DNA from: a bacterium
Lineage (GTDB): Bacteria; Patescibacteriota; Minisyncoccia; UBA6257; 1-14-0-10-44-23
Assembly: GCA_030699515.1 (NCBI GenBank)
Contig: JAUYME010000066.1
Coordinates: 1-33,120, forward strand
Direction: 5' to 3'
DNA length: 33,120 nucleotides
Shown here piece after piece: positions 2,722 to 33,039 of this stretch. How positions within the stretch are numbered: the first letter of the stretch is position 1; each line of letters starts with the position of its first letter. The notes under the pieces were generated by a model. The model did no database searches and was not told the origin of the DNA. It saw only the letters and a list, made by a program, of their open reading frames with translations. The translations under genes and the position numbers were made by a program.

Positions 2722-2756
2722 GAGCAGAGACCAGAGGGAATCTTTTAATTGAGCTC

Positions 2757-3725
2757 TTAGATTAGAGCAAAGATCTTGGCAATGAATAGAGCATAAAGGA
2801 GAACGTAGAGAAGTCCTTCCCAGATGTGGATGTGTTTTGAGATTCCAGAGATTACAAAAAGGATTGTAGAGGCGATAAGCATTGGGATGCCCAGGCTAAA
2901 CGTTTGCGTGTCCAGAGTGAGGGTTTTAAAGAGCCCCGGAATACCGACAACAACAAGAATGTTGAAAATATTCGATCCAAAAATATTACCCAGCGCAACT
3001 TCATATTTTTTATTCATGGCCGCTTTAATGGAAACGATAACTTCCGGCAGAGAAGTTCCAAAGGCTACTGCGGCAAGGGCAATGACTCCGGTTGCAATGT
3101 TTAGAATTGCAGAAATTGCGATAACGGCATCAATTAAAAACTTTGCACCGAAAATAAGACTGAGCAAGCCCAGAATGAGAAAAACAATATCTTTGATGGT
3201 TATTTTATTGCTTTTCTTGGGCGCTTCAATGATTGGGGGGATAATGTCGGAGGGCTCAATATTGTCATCGTTATAGTCGGCTTCTTTGATGGTATAGATA
3301 AAGTAAATTAGGTAGGTTGCAAGCAGAATGATTGCTTCTGTCAGGTTTATTGTTTTATCCCAAGCGACGACAAGAAAAATACCGGTTGTAACTGCAAGCA
3401 GGGGAAGGTCCAGGTCAATTAAGTTTTTTGTGACTATAAGGCGCCGGCCGACAATGGCGGCAAGCCCGACGACTAAAAGAATGTTTGCAATATTAGAACC
3501 GATTGCGTTGGCGGCAGGGATGTCGGTAGCTCCTTCAATGACGGCCGCGATGGAAGAAATAAGTTCGGGAAAAGAAGTGCCAAGGCCAACAATAATCACT
3601 CCGACAATGAATGACGATAAGCCCAGTGCAAAACCTATTTTTTCCGCACTATCCAAAAGCCAGTCGGCGCCTTTAATAAGGGCGATGATGGCAACAATAA
3701 AAACTAAAATCCAAATAGTTAGCAT
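2757..3725 (-). CDS. Ca2+/Na+ (CaCA, YrbG-like) antiporter
   Basis: Two internal repeats with GTSFPE / GTSLPE alpha-repeat signatures and about 10 TM helices. TATAAT lies 7 nt upstream of the ATG on the minus strand. Confidence 0.8.
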   Translation of the reverse strand: MLTIWILVFIVAIIALIKGADWLLDSAEKIGFALGLSSFIVGVIIVGLGTSFPELISSIAAVIEGATDIPAANAIGSNIANILLVVGLAAIVGRRLIVTKNLIDLDLPLLAVTTGIFLVVAWDKTINLTEAIILLATYLIYFIYTIKEADYNDDNIEPSDIIPPIIEAPKKSNKITIKDIVFLILGLLSLIFGAKFLIDAVIAISAILNIATGVIALAAVAFGTSLPEVIVSIKAAMNKKYEVALGNIFGSNIFNILVVVGIPGLFKTLTLDTQTFSLGIPMLIASTILFVISGISKHIHIWEGLLYVLLYALFIAKIFALI

Positions 3726-3762: not shown

Positions 3763-3803
3763 AAAAAAAACGGGCCGTGGCGACAGTGAAGCCGCCACAG
3801 CCC
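3763..3803 (-). terminator. Intrinsic terminator (13-bp stem plus U8)
   Basis: Minus strand GGGCUGUGGCGGC-UUCAC-UGUCGCCACGGCCC followed by UUUUUUUU. The two wobble pairs would be C-A mismatches on the plus strand. Confidence 0.75.
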
Positions 3804-3995
3804 TGATGAGTGCGCCCGGTTGGGGCGATCGGAGTCCCTACCCTCTTCTATGCTGCCTTCGTTTGGGAGCGGGGCAGTCGTTGTCCCTACTGAAGCTGCC
3901 ACAGAGGGCCATTGCGAATAGAAACCCAATTGCGGCAGTCCCCAGCGAAACCAGAAAGACTGTAAGCACGGGAACTCCAGGGGACCGGGACTTAT
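3763..3995 (-). ncRNA. Unclassified GC-rich structured RNA (independent sRNA or cis-leader), ending in an intrinsic terminator
   Basis: GC-rich block in an AT-rich spacer. 5'/3' end complementarity (GGAGUUCCC/GGGACUCC, CCCGG/CCGGG). Extended -10 (TGGTATAAAT) near 4000. The terminator has G-U wobbles valid only on the minus strand. Confidence 0.5.
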
Positions 3996-4084: not shown

Positions 4085-5485
4085 ATGGAGAGAACTTTAA
4101 TTAAAGAAACGCCGGAAAGGATTGGCGAGAAGGTAGAGCTTTTTGGCTGGGTGGACAGCAGGAGAGATCATGGAAAGCTGATTTTTTTTGATATTCGCGA
4201 CAGAAGTGGAATTGTTCAGGCTGTGGTAACGCCAAAAAGCGCTGCCTACGAAGAGGCAAACAAGCTTCGTGATGAGTGGGTTATTAGAGTTGTGGCAGAA
4301 ATAAAGGCTAGGCCGGAAAAAATGATTAACGAGGGGCTATCCACCGGAACAGTTGAGGCAGCTATTTCCGAGCTTGAAGTTTTGAATGAAAGTGAAACAC
4401 CGCCATTGCCGCTAAAAGGTGATGGAATGGATATTGATGAGGATGTTCGGCTTAAGTATAGATATTTGGATTTGCGTCGAGAAAGACTGCAGAAGAACAT
4501 TAAATTGCGCAGCGAGTTTGTAGATAGGTGCAGGCAATTTCTTTTTGAGCGTGATTTTAGCGAGATAGAAACGCCAATGCTTACTAAGAGCACCGCCGAA
4601 GGCTCTAGAGACTTTGTTGTGCCAAGCAGACTGCACAAAGGAAAGTTCTTTGCACTTCCGCAAAGTCCACAGCAATACAAACAGCTTTTAATGACAGCTG
4701 GCTTTGAAAGATACTTTCAGCTTGCCCGATGTATTCGCGATGAAGACTTAAGGGCGGACAGAGGCTTTGAGCATACTCAAATTGATATGGAAGTGAGCTT
4801 TGTTGATAGGGACGAGTTTATGAAAATGGATGAAGAAATGATTACAACTGTTGTGGAGGCAATGGGCTACAAAATTAAAGAAAAGCCTTTTCCAAGAATT
4901 AGTTATAAAACTGCGATAAATGAGTATGGCGGGGATAAGTTTGATTTGCGAAATGAGGCAGAGAAACAGGACGGGGTGCTGGCATTTGCTTGGGTTACAG
5001 ATTTTCCGTTTTTTGAGAAGGCGGATGATGGCGGCTACACCTTCTCTCACAACCCTTTTTCTGCAGTAATGCCGGAAAGTTTGGATGATTTGCTGAAAGG
5101 GGAGAATGTAGAAAACATTATCAGTTCCCAATACGATCTTGTTTGCAACGGTTTTGAGGTAGGAGGTGGAAGCATCAGGGCGCATAGGGCAGATTGGCTT
5201 GAAGCAGCACTAAAAATTATGGGAATGGATGAAGAAAAAATTCAGAAAGATTACGGCCATATGCTGGAGGCATTTAAATATGGCACTCCACCGCATGGGG
5301 GAATTGCCCATGGAGTTGAAAGAATGATAATGATTTTAAGCGGAGAAGAGTATCTGCGAGAGGTGCAGGCCTTCCCGCAAAGTAGTAGCGGGCGAACTTC
5401 TGTAATGAATGCACCAGAGCCAATTAGCGACGATCAACTGAAGGAGCTAGGGCTAAAGATTGATATAAAAAAAGATAAGGAGTAA
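4085..5485 (+). CDS. aspS: Aspartyl-tRNA synthetase, short form without the bacterial insertion (GAD) domain
   Basis: Class II motifs QSPQQYKQLLM, FERYFQLARCIRDEDLRADR and GGGSIR. 466 aa, against about 590 aa for typical bacterial AspRS. Confidence 0.9.
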   Translation: MERTLIKETPERIGEKVELFGWVDSRRDHGKLIFFDIRDRSGIVQAVVTPKSAAYEEANKLRDEWVIRVVAEIKARPEKMINEGLSTGTVEAAISELEVLNESETPPLPLKGDGMDIDEDVRLKYRYLDLRRERLQKNIKLRSEFVDRCRQFLFERDFSEIETPMLTKSTAEGSRDFVVPSRLHKGKFFALPQSPQQYKQLLMTAGFERYFQLARCIRDEDLRADRGFEHTQIDMEVSFVDRDEFMKMDEEMITTVVEAMGYKIKEKPFPRISYKTAINEYGGDKFDLRNEAEKQDGVLAFAWVTDFPFFEKADDGGYTFSHNPFSAVMPESLDDLLKGENVENIISSQYDLVCNGFEVGGGSIRAHRADWLEAALKIMGMDEEKIQKDYGHMLEAFKYGTPPHGGIAHGVERMIMILSGEEYLREVQAFPQSSSGRTSVMNAPEPISDDQLKELGLKIDIKKDKE

Positions 5486-8702: not shown

Positions 8703-8875
8703 CCACAATCGCACTATGCCGCGGCACAGTGCGATTGTGGGGAGTGGTGTGGTGGGTGGTTAACAAGGTGGTTAACCGCTATAAAGGCTAGAAAGCCTCA
8801 TGAATACTGGGCTTTTGGGCTGTTTAAAAAAGAATTATATAATTTATTATGTAATAAATTATATAATTCTTTTTT
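8703..8875. repeat. Composite module A: hairpin 8703-8740, GGTGGTTAAC x2 (8755-8764, 8767-8776), aagcctcatgaata, A/T-only palindrome 8826-8875
   Basis: Homologous in order and sequence to 32120-32358. The hairpin stems differ by compensatory changes. Confidence 0.8.
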
Positions 8876-8951
8876 TTGGGAAGTCTTATTAAAAAGCGGA
8901 ACCGGCGGCCCTGGAGAGGGTCGCCGGCGCGCGGATGGAGGGTGGGGCTAG

Positions 8952-9188
8952 CTAGCAAACAGAGTGTCCCTTGTTGATCCACTCGTCGAGCTCTTGCTGT
9001 CGAGGGTCGAAGTGGCAGGTGCCTCCGACCTCGCGCCGACAGATAGGGCAGTTTTGCATGTGCTCTATCAGTCGCCGACCAGCAGGATCTGTCGTCTGCT
9101 CGATGGTCTTGGCCGATGGCAATCTGGGGAAGTAGAGGATTTCTCCTTCCGTCGGTCGCCGATCTTGGGGAGAAGGCTGGTCCACCAT
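8952..9188 (-). CDS. GC-rich mini-ORF (78 aa), CPIC...C.H motif, unknown function
   Basis: SD GGAGA lies 6 nt before the ATG. GC-rich third codon positions. A hairpin plus U-tract follows. The overlapping ORFs 8824..9201 and 8964..9347 look like off-frame translations. Confidence 0.55.
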   Translation of the reverse strand: MVDQPSPQDRRPTEGEILYFPRLPSAKTIEQTTDPAGRRLIEHMQNCPICRREVGGTCHFDPRQQELDEWINKGHSVC

Positions 9189-16620: not shown

Positions 16621-16915
16621 TTTTTTTGTGCTTTGCCTTGACCTGCGAGACTTTCGTTTGGATGAAGTATCGCCAAGTCAAGGTAGCTTTATTAAAGTTG
16701 TAATAAATGCGACTTTTCTACAGTAGCTGACGATTGAAACTAGCAACTCTTTCCTTGCTATGTTATTCGCTAAAAATCTTTAAGGTGATAAAATGGAATT
16801 GTAGTTTCAAGAAAAGTTGAATATCCCGATATGATAGCTTCTAGTGCCTTTGGCACTAAGCATCAAACGGGATGCTCAATTTTGTAGATAAATCTAAGAT
16901 TTAAACAAAATTGGC

Positions 16916-18763
16916 ATGTGTGGAATTGTTGGATACATAGGAAAGAAAAGGGCAATGCCGGTTTTGCTGGATGGTTTAAAGCGCTTGGAATATCGCGGCT
17001 ACGATAGTGCCGGGGTGGCGATTTTGGAAAACACTGAAGTTAAGGCATTTAAAAAAGTTGGGCGGGTGGAAAATTTGCTTAAAGCGATTGAGACAGCGGG
17101 GGAGTTGGACAGCATGGCCCATATTGGTGTAGCGCATACCAGATGGGCAACTCATGGAAAGCCCAGCGAGGAAAATGCTCATCCGCACAGTGATGAATTT
17201 GGTAAGTTTTGGTTGGTGCACAATGGAATTATTGAAAATTATGAGGAACTAAAGAAAGAGCTTTCAGAGAGCGGGGTAAAATTTAGTTCGGAAACGGACA
17301 CCGAGGTTGTAGTGCAGCTGATTGCTAAAGAAATGGAAGCTGGACTAAGTTTTGAAGAGGCTTTTCGAGTGGCGCTTAAAAAACTTCGAGGAGCTTATGG
17401 AATTGTAGTAATGAGTGCAGACGAGCCGGAATATTTAATGGCTGCAAGAAATTCAAGTCCGCTTTTAATTGGAGTAGGAGATGGGGAAATGATAGTAGCG
17501 TCTGATGCAAGTGCCGTTGTGGGTACAACTAAAAAAATTGTTTATTTGGAAGATGGGGAGTTGGCAAAAGTTTCAGCAGATGGGCTAAAGATTGAGCTTA
17601 TTGCCGAGGCTGGTAAAGAGTTGAAGCGCGAGGCAGAAACTGTAGATATGGATGCAAGCGAAATAGAAAAGGACGGACACGATTTCTTTATGCATAAAGA
17701 AATTTTTGAAATTCCCAGCGCTGTTTTAAATGCGGGAAGGGGAAGGTTTATTGCCAGTGAGGGTTTGGTGAAGTTTGGAGGTATTGAAGAAATTAAAAGC
17801 AAGTTAAGGGATATTGATAGAATTATTATTTCCGCTTGCGGCACCGCAGCCTATGCTGGCTTACTGGGCGAATATTTTATTGAAGAGCTGGCCGGAATTC
17901 CGGTGGAAGTGGAAATTGGCTCTGAATTCAGATACAGAAGCCCTGTATTTACGGAGCGCACTGCTTTAATTGTTGTTTCTCAATCTGGGGAAACTGCAGA
18001 TACATTGGCGGCGGTGCGAGAAGCAAAGGAGAAGGGGATTTTAGTTTTAGGTATTGTTAATGTAGTTGGCTCTACAATTGCGCGCGAAGTGGACTGTGGA
18101 ATTTATACCCATGCCGGTCCGGAAATTGGAGTGGCCTCTACAAAAGCTTTTATTTCTCAGCTTACGGTACTTTTACTTTTGGCTATTTATTTGGGCAGAC
18201 AGCGAAATTTATCTGTAAATGAAACAAAGGAAATTTTGGCAGATTTAGAGAAGCTTCCTGAGCTTTTAGATTCTATCTTGCATCGAGAAAAATTGGCAAA
18301 GAAGCTAGCAAAGAAATATAAAGATTTTACCAGCATGGCTTTCTTGGGTAGAAAATATAGTTTCCCTGTGGCGCTGGAGGGAGCTTTGAAATTAAAAGAA
18401 ATTTCTTATATCCATGGAGAAGGTTATCCGGCAGGAGAATTTAAGCATGGGCCAATTGCGCTCCTTGATGAAAAATTTCCGGTTTTCTTTATATTGCCTA
18501 GCGATGATGTTTACGAAAAAAGTAAATCTAATTTGGAAGAGATAAAAGCAAGGCAAGCGCCTGTAATTGCCATTGTGACTGAAGGAAATAAAGAATTAAT
18601 GAGAATGGCTGATGATGTTTTGGAAATCCCCAAAATAGCAAATATTTTAAGCCCGTTTCTTTCTACGCTTTGGACTTATCTTTTTGCTTACCATGTTGCG
18701 GATATGAAAAATTTGGACGTGGATAAGCCTAGAAACTTAGCTAAGTCTGTGACCGTCGAGTAA
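16916..18763 (+). CDS. glmS: Glutamine--fructose-6-phosphate aminotransferase
   Basis: N-terminal MCGIVGY, two SIS domains, C-terminal KPRNLAKSVTVE. Confidence 0.95.
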   Translation: MCGIVGYIGKKRAMPVLLDGLKRLEYRGYDSAGVAILENTEVKAFKKVGRVENLLKAIETAGELDSMAHIGVAHTRWATHGKPSEENAHPHSDEFGKFWLVHNGIIENYEELKKELSESGVKFSSETDTEVVVQLIAKEMEAGLSFEEAFRVALKKLRGAYGIVVMSADEPEYLMAARNSSPLLIGVGDGEMIVASDASAVVGTTKKIVYLEDGELAKVSADGLKIELIAEAGKELKREAETVDMDASEIEKDGHDFFMHKEIFEIPSAVLNAGRGRFIASEGLVKFGGIEEIKSKLRDIDRIIISACGTAAYAGLLGEYFIEELAGIPVEVEIGSEFRYRSPVFTERTALIVVSQSGETADTLAAVREAKEKGILVLGIVNVVGSTIAREVDCGIYTHAGPEIGVASTKAFISQLTVLLLLAIYLGRQRNLSVNETKEILADLEKLPELLDSILHREKLAKKLAKKYKDFTSMAFLGRKYSFPVALEGALKLKEISYIHGEGYPAGEFKHGPIALLDEKFPVFFILPSDDVYEKSKSNLEEIKARQAPVIAIVTEGNKELMRMADDVLEIPKIANILSPFLSTLWTYLFAYHVADMKNLDVDKPRNLAKSVTVE

Positions 18764-18770
18764 GGATGTG

Positions 18771-18837
18771 GACCCCCGCGTGCTTCGCGCGCTGCACCAG
18801 AGCCGACGAGGCAAGCTCGGGCTCGGTGCGGGGCGGG
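18771..18837. repeat. GC-rich two-hairpin element, copy 1
   Basis: gaCCCCCGC-[GCGUG cuucg CGCGC]-u-[GCACC a GAGCC ga CGAG gcaag CUCG GGCUC GGUGC]-GGGGcggg. Homologous to 19337-19406 and 32844-32912. Confidence 0.85.
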
Positions 18838-18838
18838 T

Positions 18839-18877
18839 AAACCAAGAAATTTGGCAAAAAGCGTTACTGTGGAATAA
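18839..18877 (+). pseudogene. Displaced second copy of the glmS 3' end (KPRNLAKSVTVE*), synonymously different from 18725-18763
   Basis: aaa cca aga aat ttg gca aaa agc gtt act gtg gaa taa translates identically to the last 12 codons plus stop of glmS. It lies 114 nt downstream in the same frame. Confidence 0.8.
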
Positions 18878-18883
18878 AGAAAT

Positions 18884-18916
18884 AAAAAACACCTCGCAAG
18901 CGCGGGGTGTTTTTTA
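18884..18916. terminator. Bidirectional intrinsic terminator
   Basis: aaaaaacacctcgc-aa-gcgcggggtgtttttt, between convergent glmS and the small membrane gene. Confidence 0.7.
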
Positions 18917-19168: not shown

Positions 19169-19336
19169 AGTGTGTATGTTGTTAATTTCTAATGAATACT
19201 AGTAAAAGCATAACATTATTATAGAATAATGCTCGTTTTGCAGTGGAAAAATAGAGAGTAATCGCGAACATCGCGAATTGCGCAAAATATCGCGAATAAA
19301 ACTAAGGCGGGGAAAATTGGGTTATTCCAAGGTTGA

Positions 19337-19461
19337 GACCCCCGCATGGCAAGCCGTGCTGCACCAGAACCAACGAAGTAAATTCGGGCTCGGTGCGGGG
19401 CAGGACTTGGTAGCTTGCTGGTGTGTACTTAGTGATGGGCTGGATAGTTTTTCAATCGGTC
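19337..19461. repeat. GC-rich two-hairpin element, copy 2 (core 19337-19406) plus a ~55-nt tail, bounded by 19-nt direct repeats
   Basis: Core homologous to copies 1 and 3. Direct repeats ttattccaaggttgagacc at 19322-19340 and 19462-19480. Confidence 0.85.
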
Positions 19462-19953
19462 TTATTCCAAGGTTGAGACCGTGGACTGCAAAGATCTAGT
19501 TTCTTTGATTTGAGGATTGTCCGGGTTGGAAGTCAATACAATAGAAATTTGCACAGCAGTGGTAGAGGTGCCGCTAAATTCCTGGAAAGTTAGGCTGTCT
19601 AGCGTAACATCGGCGCTTGTTAGCGCTTCTTGCGAATTTGACCCCAGCTTTCTGTAGATTGTTCCTGCTGAACTGTTGATTATAATCGGGTCGGTGCTTG
19701 ACACTCCGGTAGTAATTGTAAGGGTTGAACTGCTGACAGATATTGATTGACCCTGGCGGACGTCGGTTTTGATAACATTCATTACAAAGCTTAGCTCACT
19801 GCTTAGTTTATAGCCTGAGCTTTGATGCTGCTGAACTCTAAGAATTGTAAATAGTATTCCTGAAAGAAGGCTAAGAAGGATAACGGTAAGGCCAAGGTAG
19901 ATGACCAGCTCAATGAAAGAAAGCCCCCGCGTGCTTCGCGCGCTTTTAAACAC
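19462..19953 (-). CDS. Prepilin-type (type IV pilin-like) pseudopilin; start uncertain (GTG 19953 or ATG 20028)
   Basis: G|LSFIELVIYLGLTVILLSLL is a class III signal/methylation motif. The stretch upstream of the Gly is repeat-derived sequence. Confidence 0.7.
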   Translation of the reverse strand: MFKSARSTRGLSFIELVIYLGLTVILLSLLSGILFTILRVQQHQSSGYKLSSELSFVMNVIKTDVRQGQSISVSSSTLTITTGVSSTDPIIINSSAGTIYRKLGSNSQEALTSADVTLDSLTFQEFSGTSTTAVQISIVLTSNPDNPQIKETRSLQSTVSTLE

Positions 19954-20044
19954 TAATGCACGAATGGGCGCGAATCCTCTAATAAGAAATGAAGGTCCTT
20001 TCGTTTTATTCGGTGATTGATGAATCATTGGTGTATTAGTGTTT
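19948..20044. repeat. MITE-like inverted-repeat element E1 (termini AAACACTAATGCAC ... GTGTATTAGTGTTT)
   Basis: Homologous, in reverse orientation, to 29112-29227. Shares a 19-nt identical end, cattggtgtattagtgttt. Confidence 0.75.
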
Positions 20045-20131: not shown

Positions 20132-20836
20132 ATGACGGATAGTAATGAAACCGGAACACAGGTAAAAGACTCAATGCTTGAAGAGATGGCGCAGGCCGGT
20201 CTTTTGTTTGGGCGGAAAAAATCAAAGACTAATCCAAAAATGAAGGATTATGTTTTTGCGAACCGAAACGGCTTTGAGATGTTTGATTTGGAAAAAACCG
20301 CCGCAAAGCTTGAGGAAGCTAAGGCATTTTTGGCTTCCGTGGCAAAGACCGGGAAAACTATTTTGTTTGTTGGTACTACTCCTGCGGGCCAAGAAGTTAT
20401 GAAGGAAGTTGCCGAAGGCTTTAAGGCTCCTTATGTAACCCATAGGTGGCTTGGCGGTACTTTAAGTAATTTTGAAACAATTTCTTCACGGCTTAGGTAT
20501 TTTATTAAACTTAAGGCCGACAAAGAATCCGGAAAACTTGAAAAATATACCAAGAAGGAGCGGACAAAATTTGATAAAGAGCTGGAAAGATTAGAGAGGC
20601 TTTTCGGCGGTCTTGAAGAATTAACTGCTATGCCTGCCGCACTCATTGTGGCAAATACAGATGCGCATTCAATTGCAGTAAGAGAGGCAAATATTGCAGG
20701 AGTGCCGGTAATTGGAATTACAAATTCCAGCACCGATCCTGAGGGCGTAGATTATCTGATTCCGGCAAATGACAACAGTATTTCTAGCGTGCGTTGGATT
20801 GTTGAGCAATTAGCGCAGGCGTTAAAGACGAAGTAA
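20132..20836 (+). CDS. rpsB: 30S ribosomal protein S2
   Basis: MLEEMAQAGLLFGRKKSKTNPKM... and HRWLGGTLSNF. ATG 20132 preferred over the ORF-track start. Confidence 0.9.
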   Translation: MTDSNETGTQVKDSMLEEMAQAGLLFGRKKSKTNPKMKDYVFANRNGFEMFDLEKTAAKLEEAKAFLASVAKTGKTILFVGTTPAGQEVMKEVAEGFKAPYVTHRWLGGTLSNFETISSRLRYFIKLKADKESGKLEKYTKKERTKFDKELERLERLFGGLEELTAMPAALIVANTDAHSIAVREANIAGVPVIGITNSSTDPEGVDYLIPANDNSISSVRWIVEQLAQALKTK

Positions 20837-21003
20837 GCGAAGTAGACGAAGTAGGCGAAGTAAGCGAATAAACGAAGTAGCAAATAAACGAAGTAGGCGA
20901 AGTAGGCGAAATTAGAATTAACTTTGAACTATTTGGAATATGGCGACCCTTCGACAAGCTCAGGGTGCTCATATTTCTAGATAAATCAAAGATTTATAGA
21001 AAT

Positions 21004-21970: not shown

Positions 21971-22043
21971 CAAAAAGTAGGCGACCCCGCATGCACTGAT
22001 TTCTCCTGTGCATTGTTGCGGGGCCGGGGGGGTGCGTGAGGAC

Positions 22044-22328
22044 TTACGTCGCCTCATCCTCATGGGGGTCCTCCTTGCTAGCAACGAACTCTTGGTTGTA
22101 GGCAGTGTAGACGGCCTTGACCATTGTCCAGGCATCTTCCTCGGAGCCGGCCCGCTCAACTACCCTCTGACTGTTCGGAGAGTACTGATGGAGCATGATG
22201 AGCGCCCAAACGACGATGTAGTCGTTGGTGATCGTGTGCTCCATACCGTCAACGCACACCTTCATGCCAATGAGCTCTTGCAGGCGAGAATAGACCGCGC
22301 CGGTTTCGGGGCGCTTACTGTCGTTCAT
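22044..22328 (-). CDS. GC-rich mini-ORF (94 aa), unknown function
   Basis: SD GGAGA lies 5 nt before the ATG. GC-rich third positions. Own hairpin plus U-tract terminator (about 21975-22025, minus strand). Confidence 0.65.
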   Translation of the reverse strand: MNDSKRPETGAVYSRLQELIGMKVCVDGMEHTITNDYIVVWALIMLHQYSPNSQRVVERAGSEEDAWTMVKAVYTAYNQEFVASKEDPHEDEAT

Positions 22329-23164: not shown

Positions 23165-23441
23165 CTCAGGGGTAGAGCACTTCCATGGTAATTCGCTAGA
23201 ATTTGCCCATTAGCGCCGAAATGCGCTTTTTGTATCCCGAATAACGGTTAAAGGCCTTAAGCGAGGCTCAGACCGTGGCGTTTTGCCTGCCTGCCGGCAG
23301 GCAGGCGCCCGAACGACTGACAAGGGACTACGTACTCTTTTGAGCGTAGAAGATACAGTCTAGCCTCTCTATAAGCTTTTTATGAAATGAGAGTGTAAGC
23401 GAAGGAAGGGGTCGCGAGTTCAATTCTCGCCGTCGGCTCCA
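23155..23441 (+). tRNA. tRNA-Thr(GGU) interrupted by a group I intron after anticodon position 36; CCA encoded
   Basis: Exon 1 (23155-23189): GCCGACG TA GCTC AGGGGTA GAGC A CTTCC ATGGT. Exon 2 (23402-23441): AA GGAAG GGGTC GCGAG TTCAATT CTCGC CGTCGGC T CCA. Confidence 0.8.
23190..23401 (+). mobile_element. Group I intron (212 nt, no internal ORF)
   Basis: P1 GGU|AAUUC-GCUA-GAAUU(U)GCC with U-G at the splice site. P2 AGCGC/GCGCU, P3 UCCC/GGGA, P4 ACGGU/ACCGU, P5 GGCCU/AGGCU, P7 GACUG/CAGUC, P8 CUACG..CGUAG. J8/7 AAGAUA. Terminal G at 23401. Confidence 0.8.
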
Positions 23442-24756: not shown

Positions 24757-24895
24757 GCCGTTTTGGGTTAAAATAGGGCATTCCTAAGAGTAATCGCTAA
24801 AATCGCGAAAGTACACAAAAAATCGCGAAAAAGATAAAGACGCATAAGACTAAGGAGTAATCGCGAAAAACGCGAATTGATTCAAAATATCGCGA

Positions 24896-26172: not shown

Positions 26173-26403
26173 ATGGAAACAGCAGGAATGTCTGTAGAAG
26201 CAGCAAGTATGATTGCAAAGGGGCTAATTGCTCTTGCAATGGTGGGAACCGCTGCCGGTGAAGGTTACGTTATCGGTAAGGCTCTTGAAGCCATTGGACG
26301 AAACCCAGAGGCTGGAAGCTCTATCTTTGGAAAAATGATTATCGGTGTGGCCATGGCTGAGTCTACAGCTATTTACGCATTGGTGTTGTTTTTCGTCATC
26401 TAG
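26173..26403 (+). CDS. atpE: F0 ATP synthase subunit c
   Basis: Hairpin proteolipid with GRNPE loop and AMAESTAIYALV carboxylate helix. Confidence 0.9.
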   Translation: METAGMSVEAASMIAKGLIALAMVGTAAGEGYVIGKALEAIGRNPEAGSSIFGKMIIGVAMAESTAIYALVLFFVI

Positions 26404-26458
26404 GAGTAATCGCTAATATCGCGAACGGGGGAGGTAATATCGCGAATAAAACAAAAAC

Positions 26459-26941
26459 GTGCAAGAAGTACTAGGAAAAATTGGATTTGATTGGCATTTA
26501 GCCATTGTAAACTTGGTGAATGTATTCATTATTTTTCTGGTACTAAAAAAGTGGGCTTTTGGGCCAATTCAGAACATTATTGATGAGCGAAAGAAGGAGG
26601 TAGATGCAAGTTTGCAGTCTGCGCAAGATGCGCAAAAGCAAAGCGAGATGGCAGAGCAAGAGCGGGAAAAAACCATTGCTAAAGCTAGAAAGGAGGCACA
26701 GGGAATTTTAGAAACTGCCAACGAAGAAAGCAAGGGTATTGTTGAAGAAGGAAAGCTGAAGCTTTCTAAGGAAAAAGATGAGATGCTAAAGAAGGCAAGC
26801 CTTGAGATAGAAGCAAAGAAAAAGGAAAGTGAAGACAAGCTAAAAAGTCAGGCATCCGTCCTTATTACTTCTGGAATTAAGAAAATTCTTAAGGAAGAGG
26901 TGGATAGGGAGATGAACAGTCGCATTATCAACAAAAGTTGA
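26459..26941 (+). CDS. atpF: F0 ATP synthase subunit b (GTG start)
   Basis: N-terminal TM, then a long charged coiled coil. Position in the operon. Confidence 0.8.
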   Translation: MQEVLGKIGFDWHLAIVNLVNVFIIFLVLKKWAFGPIQNIIDERKKEVDASLQSAQDAQKQSEMAEQEREKTIAKARKEAQGILETANEESKGIVEEGKLKLSKEKDEMLKKASLEIEAKKKESEDKLKSQASVLITSGIKKILKEEVDREMNSRIINKS

Positions 26942-31760: not shown

Positions 31761-32039
31761 ATGATACAACTAAGAATCGTAACGATAGAGGGGGTGAAAT
31801 TTTCCGGGAAGGTGGGGCAGGTAACACTTCCTACCGGTGCCGGTGAAATTACGGTTTTGCCAAACCATATTCCTTTAATTTCTCAATTAAATGCTGGAAC
31901 GTTGCGAACGAAAGGAGGTGAAGAAGGGGAGCAGGCTTTTATTATTGGCAAAGGAGTGCTTGAAGTAAGGAAGGGAAGCAATGTAGTGGTGCTTACGGAT
32001 GAATGCAAAAGCAGTAGCCCTTCGACAAGCTCAGGGTAA
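31761..32039 (+). CDS. atpC: F1 ATP synthase subunit epsilon, beta-sandwich domain only
   Basis: The N-terminal domain pattern (LPNHIPLIS, VLEV) is present. The protein stops after 92 aa. The last 7 codons lie in a 20-nt motif that also occurs at 20947-20966. Confidence 0.75.
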   Translation: MIQLRIVTIEGVKFSGKVGQVTLPTGAGEITVLPNHIPLISQLNAGTLRTKGGEEGEQAFIIGKGVLEVRKGSNVVVLTDECKSSSPSTSSG

Positions 32040-32119
32040 ACAATTAGCATGTAGTAAGTAGTAAGCAGAAGGCGAAGACCAAGGCAAAGACAAATGCTAA
32101 GAAAAGAGGGGGGCGAGCC

Positions 32120-32358
32120 CCCACAATGCTGTTATGCCCAGGCATAACAGCATTGTGGGAAGTGGTTAGCCCGTCCAGCGCACTTCCTTCGGCCCCGCTC
32201 AAGATAAACAAGGCAGGCAGGGTAAACGGGGTAGGCTAGGTGGTTAACTGAGTGGTTGACTGCTTGGTAGAGTGCTTAAGCCTCATGGATAGAGGGGTTC
32301 TAGTCGATTTGGAAAAGAATTATATAATTTATTATATAATAAATTATATAATTCTTTT
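32120..32358. repeat. Composite module B: hairpin 32120-32159, GGTGGTTAAC/AGTGGTTGAC (32239-32248, 32251-32260), aagcctcatggata, A/T-only palindrome 32313-32358
   Basis: Same order as module A (8703-8875), with an extra ~65-nt GC-rich insert after the hairpin. Confidence 0.8.
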
Positions 32359-32362
32359 TTTG

Positions 32363-32408
32363 GATGCTATATCATATCCGGCCGGATATGATATAGCATC
32401 TTGTTTTT
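32363..32408 (+). terminator. 38-nt perfect palindrome plus T-tract
   Basis: gatgctatatcatatccgg|ccggatatgatatagcatc ttgttttt. Confidence 0.65.
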
Positions 32409-32476
32409 AAACTTGGCAATAAATTGTTAGTATTTAAGTGTTCCTCGAAAATTTCACGACCACGGAAGGAGAATGG

Positions 32477-32677
32477 ATGCAGGAGCAGAAAAGCGCTGTG
32501 GACCCCATGCGCCTCAAGGGGCAGTGGGTGAGCTGTAGGGACCAATGTCGCCCACTCTTCGTTCGCGAAGTGGGTGGCGGTTCCAACCCGCTCGGGCTGG
32601 CTGAGGATGAGCTGGGCAAGGTCATCCTCTGGTCGCCACTGAAGAATGTGGACATCCCCACCGATCTGGGCGTCTGA
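32477..32677 (+). CDS. GC-rich mini-ORF (66 aa), unknown function
   Basis: SD GGAAGGAG lies 5 nt before the ATG. GC-rich third positions. Weak local similarity (C....REVGG....P....EL) to the 8952..9188 product. Confidence 0.5.
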   Translation: MQEQKSAVDPMRLKGQWVSCRDQCRPLFVREVGGGSNPLGLAEDELGKVILWSPLKNVDIPTDLGV

Positions 32678-32679
32678 CG

Positions 32680-32843
32680 CTCACACGGAAGCCACAACTT
32701 CCGGCGCTAGGCGCCGGTACGCAACTTCCCGGGGGTCGCCGTATCTGCGGCGACCCCCAGACCCCATAGCCCTTGTAGCTCCCGCCCGTTGCAAAGTAAT
32801 GGGCGAGGCTCGCCCAGCAGCAAAGCTGCTTCGGGCGGCAATG
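32680..32843. other. Chain of GC-rich hairpins, including a second Y-shaped unit (CCGCCC [GGGCGA ggc UCGCCC][AGCAGC aaa GCUGCU] GGGCGG)
   Basis: ggaagcc-acaa-cttcc, ggcgc-tag-gcgcc and gggggtcgccg-tatct-gcggcgaccccc are read directly. All ORFs here look like off-frame noise. Confidence 0.5.
32769..32781 (+). other. Duplicated fragment of the tRNA-Arg 5' end (gcccttgtagctc versus gcctttgtagctc at 32965-32977)
   Basis: 12 of 13 nt identical, same orientation, 196 nt upstream of the intact tRNA. Confidence 0.6.
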
Positions 32844-32912
32844 GACCCCCGCGCGCTTCGCGTGCTGCACCAGAACCAACGAGGCAAGCTCGGGTTCGGT
32901 GCGGGGCAGGAC
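32844..32912. repeat. GC-rich two-hairpin element, copy 3
   Basis: gacccccgcgcgcttcgcgtgctgcaccagaaccaacgaggcaagctcgggttcggtgcggggcaggac. Confidence 0.85.
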
Positions 32913-32964
32913 TCAATAGCCATTAGCCCTGATGTTGTTTGTATGCTTTGATGCGCGTGAATAT

Positions 32965-33039
32965 GCCTTTGTAGCTCAATGGATAGAGCAGTCCCGTCCT
33001 AAGGGAAAGATGTGGGTTCGATTCCTACCAAGGGCACCA
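32965..33039 (+). tRNA. tRNA-Arg(CCU), CCA encoded
   Basis: GCCTTTG TA GCTC AATGGATA GAGC A GTCCC GTCCTAA GGGAA AGAT GTGGG TTCGATT CCTAC CAAGGGC A CCA. Confidence 0.85.

Follow-up and report, generated by a model that had tools for sequence, protein, structure and literature searches.

What lies between a tRNA gene and a displaced piece of its own 5' end, and how did it get there? The question is raised by one end of the contig JAUYME010000066.1, a complete 33,120-bp contig of an NCBI metagenome-assembled genome (MAG) from a Patescibacteria bacterium (candidate phyla radiation, CPR), which was analysed over its whole length and is called the window below. There a tRNA-Arg site (anticodon CCT in the DNA, CCU in the tRNA) stands at the contig end, in a GC-rich island (~60–69% GC, roughly 32450–32930) flanked by the terminator of the atp operon (32362–32401) and the tRNA-Arg gene (32965–33039, + strand). 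Between the tRNA fragment and the intact gene is one of three copies of a 69-nt GC-rich repeat, found at 18769, 19336 and 32842, all on the + strand. The conserved core of this repeat (~70 bases) makes up what we call the head (~65–80 nt) of an element whose other two copies lie at the ends of glmS and of a pilin-like gene. Here we report that two versions of a gene terminus do bracket every copy of the element, specifically and not at random, and that the head element looks like a new small mobile element.

Gene termini on both sides of the head

At the tRNA-Arg site, GCCCTTGTAGCTC (32769–32781) matches nt 1–13 of tRNA-Arg(CCT) (32965–32977) at 12 of 13 positions and in the same orientation, as the initial annotation of this DNA had noticed; the one difference is C4 in place of T4. 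It is the sole match of at least 12/13 to the tRNA 5' end on either strand of the window, and against Markov-shuffled 500-nt upstream sequence a match anchored at tRNA nt 1 has P = 0.0002 (P = 0.012 in any register). The concern that such a 13-mer could be explained by chance in a larger sample was not borne out: none of 57 other CPR tRNA-Arg(CCU) loci, taken from genomes sharing the 5' half of this tRNA, carries a 5'-anchored fragment within 500 nt on either side (13-mer with at most one mismatch, or 19-mer with at most two). In other CPR genomes, e.g. L036, L048 and L072, tRNA-Arg(CCU) begins with exactly this 13-mer.

The 13-mer is followed by a 57-nt double hairpin, the Y-unit (32782–32838), which is closed by a 7-bp stem (CCGCCCG/CGGGCGG), is single-copy in the window and occupies, with one further C, positions 32782–32839. 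Next comes AATGGA (32840–32845), equal to tRNA nt 14–19, for which we estimate a chance of ~1e-3 at that spot. Since the 13-mer thus continues past the Y-unit, we read the duplicated tRNA piece, on sequence grounds, as 19 nt long (18/19 identical) and split at tRNA position 13/14; the Y-unit is a secondary insertion in the left repeat at that position, and the length of 13 nt first given to the fragment was incomplete. Head copy 3 (32846–32910), a three-way junction, starts immediately after the hexamer. A covariance model built from the three head copies and run unfiltered on the window places it at 32839–32913 (100 bits). It is followed by a tail of 54 nt (32911–32964, GC 0.41), weakly similar to the tail of copy 2 and either part of the insert or native tRNA leader, after which nt 1–19 of the intact tRNA-Arg(CCU) (32965–32983) form the right direct repeat. 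The succession of Y-shaped unit, element copy and tail is therefore present as originally described. Two candidate origins of tail 3, as an old tRNA remnant or as a native leader homologous to the spacer in the relative L016 (see below), were rejected for lack of similarity.

Copy 2 is bracketed by TTATTCCAAGGTTGAGACC, a perfect 19-nt repeat (19/19) at 19322–19340 and 19462–19480 on the + strand. The right repeat comprises the end of the pilin-like gene (19462–20028, minus strand), namely its stop codon and the final 16 nt of its coding sequence. Between the repeats are a head (19339–19404; model hit 19333–19407, 88.7 bits) and a 57-nt tail (19405–19461, GC 0.46), both on the + strand. The first two C of the head overlap the left repeat, and because these two bases can be assigned to either, the duplication is given as 17–19 bp.

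At glmS, copy 1 sits between two differently coded versions of the peptide KPRNLAKSVTVE with its stop codon. The in-frame version (18725–18763), which looks foreign, is followed by the 9-nt spacer GGATGTGGA (together 18725–18772), a tail-less head (18773–18837; model hit 18766–18840, 100 bits) that was assembled independently in the Logan contig L075, and, one nt past the head, the displaced version with host-like codons (18839–18877), all on the + strand. A hairpin with a T-run at ~18886–18915, after the displaced end, resembles a native terminator (read by eye). The C-terminus of glmS is invariant in protein between the two ends, although 11 of their 13 codons differ, all synonymously. The normalised log-likelihood of codon use is -0.85 for the downstream end (host-preferred) and -5.0 for the in-frame end (in the 5% tail of glmS windows), and GC at third codon positions climbs from ~0.3 to 0.5–0.6 in the last 20 glmS codons. 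Ends that keep the same peptide despite differences at most synonymous sites cannot stem from a single local duplication and later drift. The two are independently selected glmS ends set next to each other, and for this reason the in-frame end is most likely foreign. A diversity-generating retroelement (template repeat/variable repeat, TR/VR) was also considered at glmS and rejected on inspection, the differences being not adenine-specific (6 of 13 at A in the downstream copy).

The tRNA-Arg site had been put forward as the third case of bracketing by gene-terminus versions, and a scan for partial gene-terminus duplications bears this out. Among the four tRNAs and 64 open reading frame (ORF) termini of the window, duplicates were found, at both nucleotide and protein level, only at the three head sites, i.e. 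at 3/3 element sites and at 0/~65 other gene termini. A possible fourth bracket at atpC was rejected, as the 10-nt exact repeat CAGGGTAAAC is within chance expectation (estimate). Its two copies, at 32032–32041 (overlapping the atpC stop codon) and, 186 nt downstream, at 32218–32227, bracket a GC-rich hairpin patch.

Structure and distribution of the element

In the consensus fold of the head, P1 (CCCC/GGGG), hairpin P2 (5 bp) and P3, a long hairpin with bulges, form a three-way junction of 23 base pairs, with 98.6% of cells paired and three compensatory pairs among the three copies. A truncated head in a related contig (L009) adds, by inspection, two more compensatory changes in P2, both from G-C to A-U; the shuffle control for this structure is weak (63/500), there being so few sequences. 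The + strand is favoured as the folded strand (three G.U versus one A.C), and folding z-scores agree. Head 3 is 91% identical to head 1. Past the head, ~13 similar bases lead into the tails of copies 2 and 3, which are barely alignable with each other (P ~0.08). In the window the covariance model matches only the three heads and one partial copy (19924–19944, + strand; E = 0.012), 21 nt identical to the P2 region of head 1. This partial head lies in frame within the leader-peptide coding region of the pilin-like gene, where it encodes ...SARSTRG, including the Gly preceding LSFIEL, and it is present in the independent Logan contig L001 as well.

The inserts (116–183 nt) hold no recombinase gene; their ORFs are only mechanical, with no Pfam family or homolog, and spurious-ORF translations of the head had no match in an index of 5.8 billion proteins. 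An Rfam scan of the window at gathering thresholds returned the four tRNAs only, and E-value scans of both regions returned noise, so that known RNA families (tRNA-like, group I/II intron, ribozymes, riboswitches, sRNAs) were rejected. Group II intron domain V, the hammerhead ribozyme and integron attC were rejected on anatomy, their helix lengths and core motifs being unfit.

Judged by the sequences searched, the head is found only in one uncultured CPR lineage and appears to have no relative in the collections. The strict head pattern was absent from GTDB representatives and viral contigs; a relaxed anchored pattern gave seven metagenome matches (JGI contigs), all in GC-rich coding DNA, and the relaxed pattern gave 15 viral matches, none of them confirmed by the covariance model. 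Phage and plasmid collections contained no head match, the 57 CPR tRNA-Arg loci lack the head, and among 79 fetched loci, BLAST with the head, Y-unit, island and tails matched just L009, L001 and L075, all of the same lineage.

Within and near this lineage the distribution is uneven. In L009 (lineage of SRR29887054; AtpD 95% identical) a head occurs ~170 nt after atpD, where atpC should begin and where the window has none; this copy is truncated, as the Logan contig ends inside it. (L009 also has an extra gene of 298 aa at 2732–3628, between atpG and atpD, with no Pfam hit and no counterpart in the window.) In L016 and L017 (AtpD 88%), atpC is followed by a 49-nt spacer and then by tRNA-Arg, the first 37 nt of which are identical to those in the window, with no head, island or orphan fragment; the interval from atpC to tRNA-Arg is 925 nt in the window versus 49 nt in L016. 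No relative was found to have the fragment without the insert, L016 and L017 having neither.

The Logan contigs assembled from SRR13727534 match the window at 100% identity, and two of them break at copy 2: the left repeat closes with 19340, where L075 ends, and the right repeat opens with 19462, where L001 starts. There is no repeated 31-mer at 19340/19462, although other contig ends do abut repeated motifs. With the k of 31 used to build Logan contigs, a repeat of 19 nt is too short to interrupt them, whereas coexisting filled and empty alleles would interrupt them exactly there. Copy 2 is thus probably polymorphic in the source sample. The element behaves as an insertion, its mobility being deduced from these break-points, from the empty site in the 88% relative and from the other site in the 95% relative.

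Explanations for the bracketing

We favour, with moderate confidence, a lineage-restricted, non-coding, non-autonomous mobile element that makes 17–19-bp target duplications. It would consist of a structure-constrained GC-rich head (~65–80 nt) and a poorly conserved, AT-richer tail (~55 nt), and an enzyme encoded elsewhere, acting in trans, would insert it, presumably at a staggered cut, and duplicate 17–19 bp of target. Where the duplicated stretch includes a gene terminus, the gene would stay intact at one flank, with an orphan piece of its terminus at the opposite flank. A second hairpin element, the Y-unit, would later have inserted into the orphan tRNA-Arg fragment (tRNA position 13/14); if the Y-unit prefers GCTC/AATGG, only the non-functional tRNA copy could tolerate its insertion. 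The tail-less copy 1 would have come with a foreign glmS 3' end that displaced the native end, probably via recombination with DNA of another lineage carrying the element just after glmS, such that foreign end and head were joined one base before the native K codon.

Several observations weigh against this reading. The element has no terminal inverted repeats (its ends are CCCCCGC... versus ...CAATCGGTC and ...GTGAATAT) and the 3' ends of tails 2 and 3 are unalike, which together make a classical two-ended transposase unlikely. Only two target duplications are informative, and 17–19 bp is unusually long for a target duplication. Copy 1 requires a separate event, the polymorphism of copy 2 is deduced from contig ends rather than reads, and no candidate enzyme was seen on the contig, of which only ten ORFs were scanned against Pfam. 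Finally, both informative repeats start exactly at a gene terminus (tRNA nt 1; stop codon). Such a start is not predicted by a random staggered cut, and it keeps alive the model of the initial annotation, namely insertion into gene ends with regeneration of the target.

Cast as a mechanism, that model is a terminus-replacing cassette: an element integrates near a gene end while bearing its own copy of the terminus, rebuilds the gene and displaces the resident terminus. We regard this as possible, if doubtful. The logic is that of integrase att sites, or of homing-endonuclease cassettes that bring a recoded gene end, and glmS fits it, with an in-frame end that is recoded (all synonymously) and atypical and a displaced end that is host-like. 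That the duplication begins exactly at the terminus at both tRNA-Arg and the pilin-like gene also speaks for it. The displaced tRNA fragment has C4, which would pair with G68, and the functional copy has T4; T4 is common to L016, however, so C4 may be a later mutation in the orphan copy. Also in favour, two other CPR genomes (L051, L072) have a functional tRNA, a 115–152-nt insert and a displaced 3' fragment, and in L029 and L016 an entire replacement tRNA-Arg is found nested at position 37/38.

Against the cassette, the end of the pilin-like gene agrees between its two copies at 19/19 positions and is thus not foreign, and an element-borne terminus is seen only at glmS. The identity (18/19 and 19/19) and equal length of the two versions at tRNA-Arg and the pilin-like gene suggest that the gene was kept there, not rebuilt from foreign sequence, and ordinary target-site duplication is the simpler account; the equal 19-nt lengths suggest a ruler rather than a carried gene piece. 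One family at three or four unrelated targets argues against a fixed target copy carried by the element. The new terminus is head-side at glmS but would be tail-side at the other two sites, and the 116–183-nt inserts contain neither an integrase nor a nuclease. The model as first proposed is partly supported, insertion faring better than regeneration.

Retroposition in the manner of short interspersed elements (SINEs), in which a reverse transcriptase would recognise the structured head, copy the RNA and integrate it at a staggered nick, is in our judgement distinctly unlikely. It would predict one conserved and one variable or truncated end, variable duplications and occasional co-copying of an adjacent transcript (the glmS mRNA end; the tRNA from mature nt 1). 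The one-ended conservation, the tail-less copy 1, the absence of terminal inverted repeats and the 17–19-bp duplications agree with it, as do 1–3 nt of ambiguous bases at the head-side junction and a tRNA fragment whose first base is that of the mature tRNA. With head 1 situated in the glmS 3' untranslated region and the island in the tRNA leader past a putative promoter (by eye), both would be transcribed. The folding of the + strand, however, puts the head at the 5' end of the RNA, opposite to elements that use target-primed reverse transcription, and on the pilin side the boundary is a stop codon rather than the end of an RNA. The contig showed no reverse-transcriptase gene, with only ten ORFs scanned against Pfam, and we know of no bacterial precedent for target-duplicating retroposition.

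It is very unlikely that the head is not mobile at all, but a host RNA or DNA motif (an mRNA 3'-end stabiliser, a leader-processing signal or a protein-binding site) whose hairpins provoke local slippage or duplication. The head structure is conserved, all copies have one orientation and are located at the ends of transcripts or in leaders (the glmS 3' untranslated region for copy 1, the tRNA leader for copy 3), and GC-rich hairpins occur in many intergenic regions of the contig, much as such a motif would lead one to expect. Yet none of the related genomes and collections searched contains the head, except the 95% relative, which has it elsewhere; the contig breaks agree with presence/absence alleles, and slippage leaves the recoded foreign glmS end unexplained. 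That the similarity is due to chance, or to misassembly at the end of the contig, is hardly credible: copy 3 does lie within the last 350 nt of the contig, with no independent covering contig retrieved, but the 13-mer alone has P = 2e-4 and is continued by AATGGA, head 3 closely matches the independently assembled head 1, and the atpC-to-tRNA-Arg synteny and the identical tRNA 5' half are common to L016.

The mobile, target-duplicating element therefore remains our preferred explanation. Going beyond it, one may tentatively suggest, as an unlikely possibility, that the head is the recognition module of an undescribed one-ended CPR mobile system that integrates at gene boundaries with a ruler-like stagger of ~19 bp, could carry a neighbouring terminus between species (as at glmS) and possibly uses an RNA or single-strand intermediate. 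If true, such a system would be a terminus-replacing homing cassette without inverted repeats or an enzyme of its own. If the 17–19-bp duplication and the one-ended conservation hold in more copies, the integration mechanism would lie beyond the standard bacterial schemes of MITEs (miniature inverted-repeat transposable elements), insertion sequences (IS), integrases and group II introns.

Genomic setting and comparison with known systems

CPR genomes are considered small and streamlined, and few transposable elements are known in them. In this one at least one hairpin family shows signs of recent movement, reshaping the ends of essential genes (glmS, tRNA-Arg). There is also a warning here for annotation: in MAGs of this kind, an orphan fragment of a gene end or a long structured tRNA leader can be the scar of an insertion. 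The closest AtpD matches to the window include Harrisonbacteria and Zambryskibacteria MAGs (85–87% identity). Its GC content is ~42%, and its coding density is only ~76%, which is low for a CPR genome. The left part of the GC-rich island (32460–32768, + strand), a run of strong hairpins between the atp terminator/putative promoter and the tRNA fragment, probably represents further non-coding insertions in the tRNA leader; a coding island was rejected, as its 66-aa ORF has no Pfam family and no homolog among 1.84 billion representatives.

Strongly folding, GC-rich (0.61–0.66) intergenic patches, unrelated in sequence to the head, occur at 11–179, 296–374, 3766–3916, 8709–9120, 21979–22078 and 23251–23339, and three 37-nt tandem repeats (44–165) lie within such patches. 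Several hairpin-element families may have invaded the genome of this contig. An 84-nt repeat (86% identical) that ends in a 48-nt perfect AT-rich palindrome is found at 8793–8876 and at 32278–32361, the second copy being followed directly by the hairpin of the atp terminator. A 9-nt tandem repeat (GAAGTAGGC-like) runs across the rpsB 3' end and beyond (20813–20915). The AT-rich hairpin motif TAGATAAATCAAAGATTTATA occurs just 5' of the start codons of glmS (16885–16905) and of the ORF after rpsB (20978–20998), with a related string upstream of atpC; the outer end of Logan contig L075 is 27 nt, and that of L001 3 nt, away from these two copies. Another repeated motif, AGTAATCGCGAAnATCGCGAA (19252–19314, 24784–24879 and 26400–26464), is found 5' of + strand ORFs and directly 5' of head copy 2, and may be a promoter or operator.

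The tRNA-Arg(CCU) genes of CPR bacteria appear to be frequent insertion targets. In L029 (MFNV01000006.1, Levybacteria; ~5128–5310 in tRNA orientation, the reverse complement of the stored locus) one tRNA-Arg(CCT) sits, complete, inside another. The insert of 106 nt lies exactly at the canonical intron position 37/38, and its excision restores a perfect tRNA. An archaeal-type tRNA intron was considered for the Y-unit and for the nested inserts of L029 and L016; inspection by hand, with no dedicated search, showed no bulge-helix-bulge motif, nt 32–35 of L029 (GUCC) not pairing with the intron 3' end (AGCA). The same kind of nested tRNA-Arg(CCT), with a 116-nt insert at 37/38, is present in L016 (2614–2858) and L017 (2553–2797), and the inserts of L029 and L016/L017 both begin CCGCGCC. 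In L016/L017 the outer tRNA gene is degenerate and has a further 54-nt AT-rich hairpin in its T-loop, which in L016 (2809–2826) is the TAGATAAATCAAAGATTTATA motif. No description of nested bacterial tRNAs was found in the literature searched, and the 41 viral matches to the nested-tRNA junction were all due to chance. In L051 (CAZXUO010000001.1) and L072 (VGJQ01000011.1) a functional tRNA-Arg(CCU) is accompanied by an insert of 115 and 152 nt, respectively, and a displaced 3' fragment of 22–26 nt; the L072 insert is GC-rich, and its displaced fragment keeps CCA while the functional copy ends in CAA. These are mini-inserts bracketed by tRNA-terminus versions in other CPR lineages, with sequences unrelated to the head.

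How does the head element compare with systems already described? Integrase islands leave attL/attR sites with a displaced partial gene copy in the ends of tRNA or protein genes, where usually the 3' end is duplicated, and homing-endonuclease cassettes replace the C-terminal coding region of a gene, e.g. Allomyces atp6. The likeness is an intact gene beside an orphan terminus and, at glmS, a foreign, synonymously diverged end; as in an att-site remnant, the direct repeats are made of the terminus of the target gene. There is, however, no common attachment sequence, the glmS end, pilin-like gene end, tRNA-Arg 5' end and L009 atpC start region being unrelated and the two 19-mers sharing 6/19 positions (by count). 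The inserts also lack a recombinase gene, and it is the 5' end of tRNA-Arg that is duplicated here, not the 3' end. SINEs and other retroposons without long terminal repeats have one conserved structured end and a variable other, 7–20-bp target duplications and no terminal inverted repeats. The head element shares the single conserved end, the variable or truncated other end, target duplications of such length and the lack of inverted repeats, but its conserved end is 5' on the better-folding strand. Elements derived from IS200/IS605 (PATE, REP/RAYT) duplicate no target sequence, insert 3' of a fixed tetra- or pentanucleotide and have subterminal hairpins at either end. The head element differs from them in its two 19-nt flanking repeats and its one structured end; its left flanks end in TGGA, GAGA, TGGA and (L009) AATT, with no fixed motif. 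IS1634/IS1549-type elements are kilobase-sized, with long, variable direct repeats (at least 17 bp), terminal inverted repeats and a DDE transposase. The long target duplication is alike, but the head element shows no such ends or gene.

Two further classes come nearer. MITEs, ERIC, Correia, RUP, REP/BIME and PATEs are structured, non-coding, multi-copy sequences of less than 200 nt, intergenic or at gene ends, that depend on a trans-acting enzyme; duplications of the MITE type measure 2–10 bp, and REP and PATE make none. Like a MITE, the head element is short, non-coding and multi-copy (three copies and a partial one in 33 kb), with flanking repeats (19/19 and 18/19). Unlike a MITE it lacks terminal inverted repeats, having one conserved end, a duplication of 17–19 bp and a range of one poorly sampled lineage. 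The repetitive hairpin-forming elements of mitochondria (yeast GC clusters, Allomyces double-hairpin elements and sponge RHEs) are short, GC-rich and ORF-less, with several unrelated families per genome, nested insertions and a route of mobility, by DNA or RNA, that is unsettled; double-hairpin elements are reported to lack flanking duplications (PMC2800124). The description of that class fits the head element, as dispersed GC-rich hairpins in intergenic or gene-end positions of a small AT-rich genome, whereas its bacterial host, its two 19-nt flanking repeats and its three-way-junction head with compensatory changes set it apart, and there is no sequence relationship. In kind, then, the element resembles both the mitochondrial hairpin and GC-cluster elements and the MITE-like repeats of bacteria.

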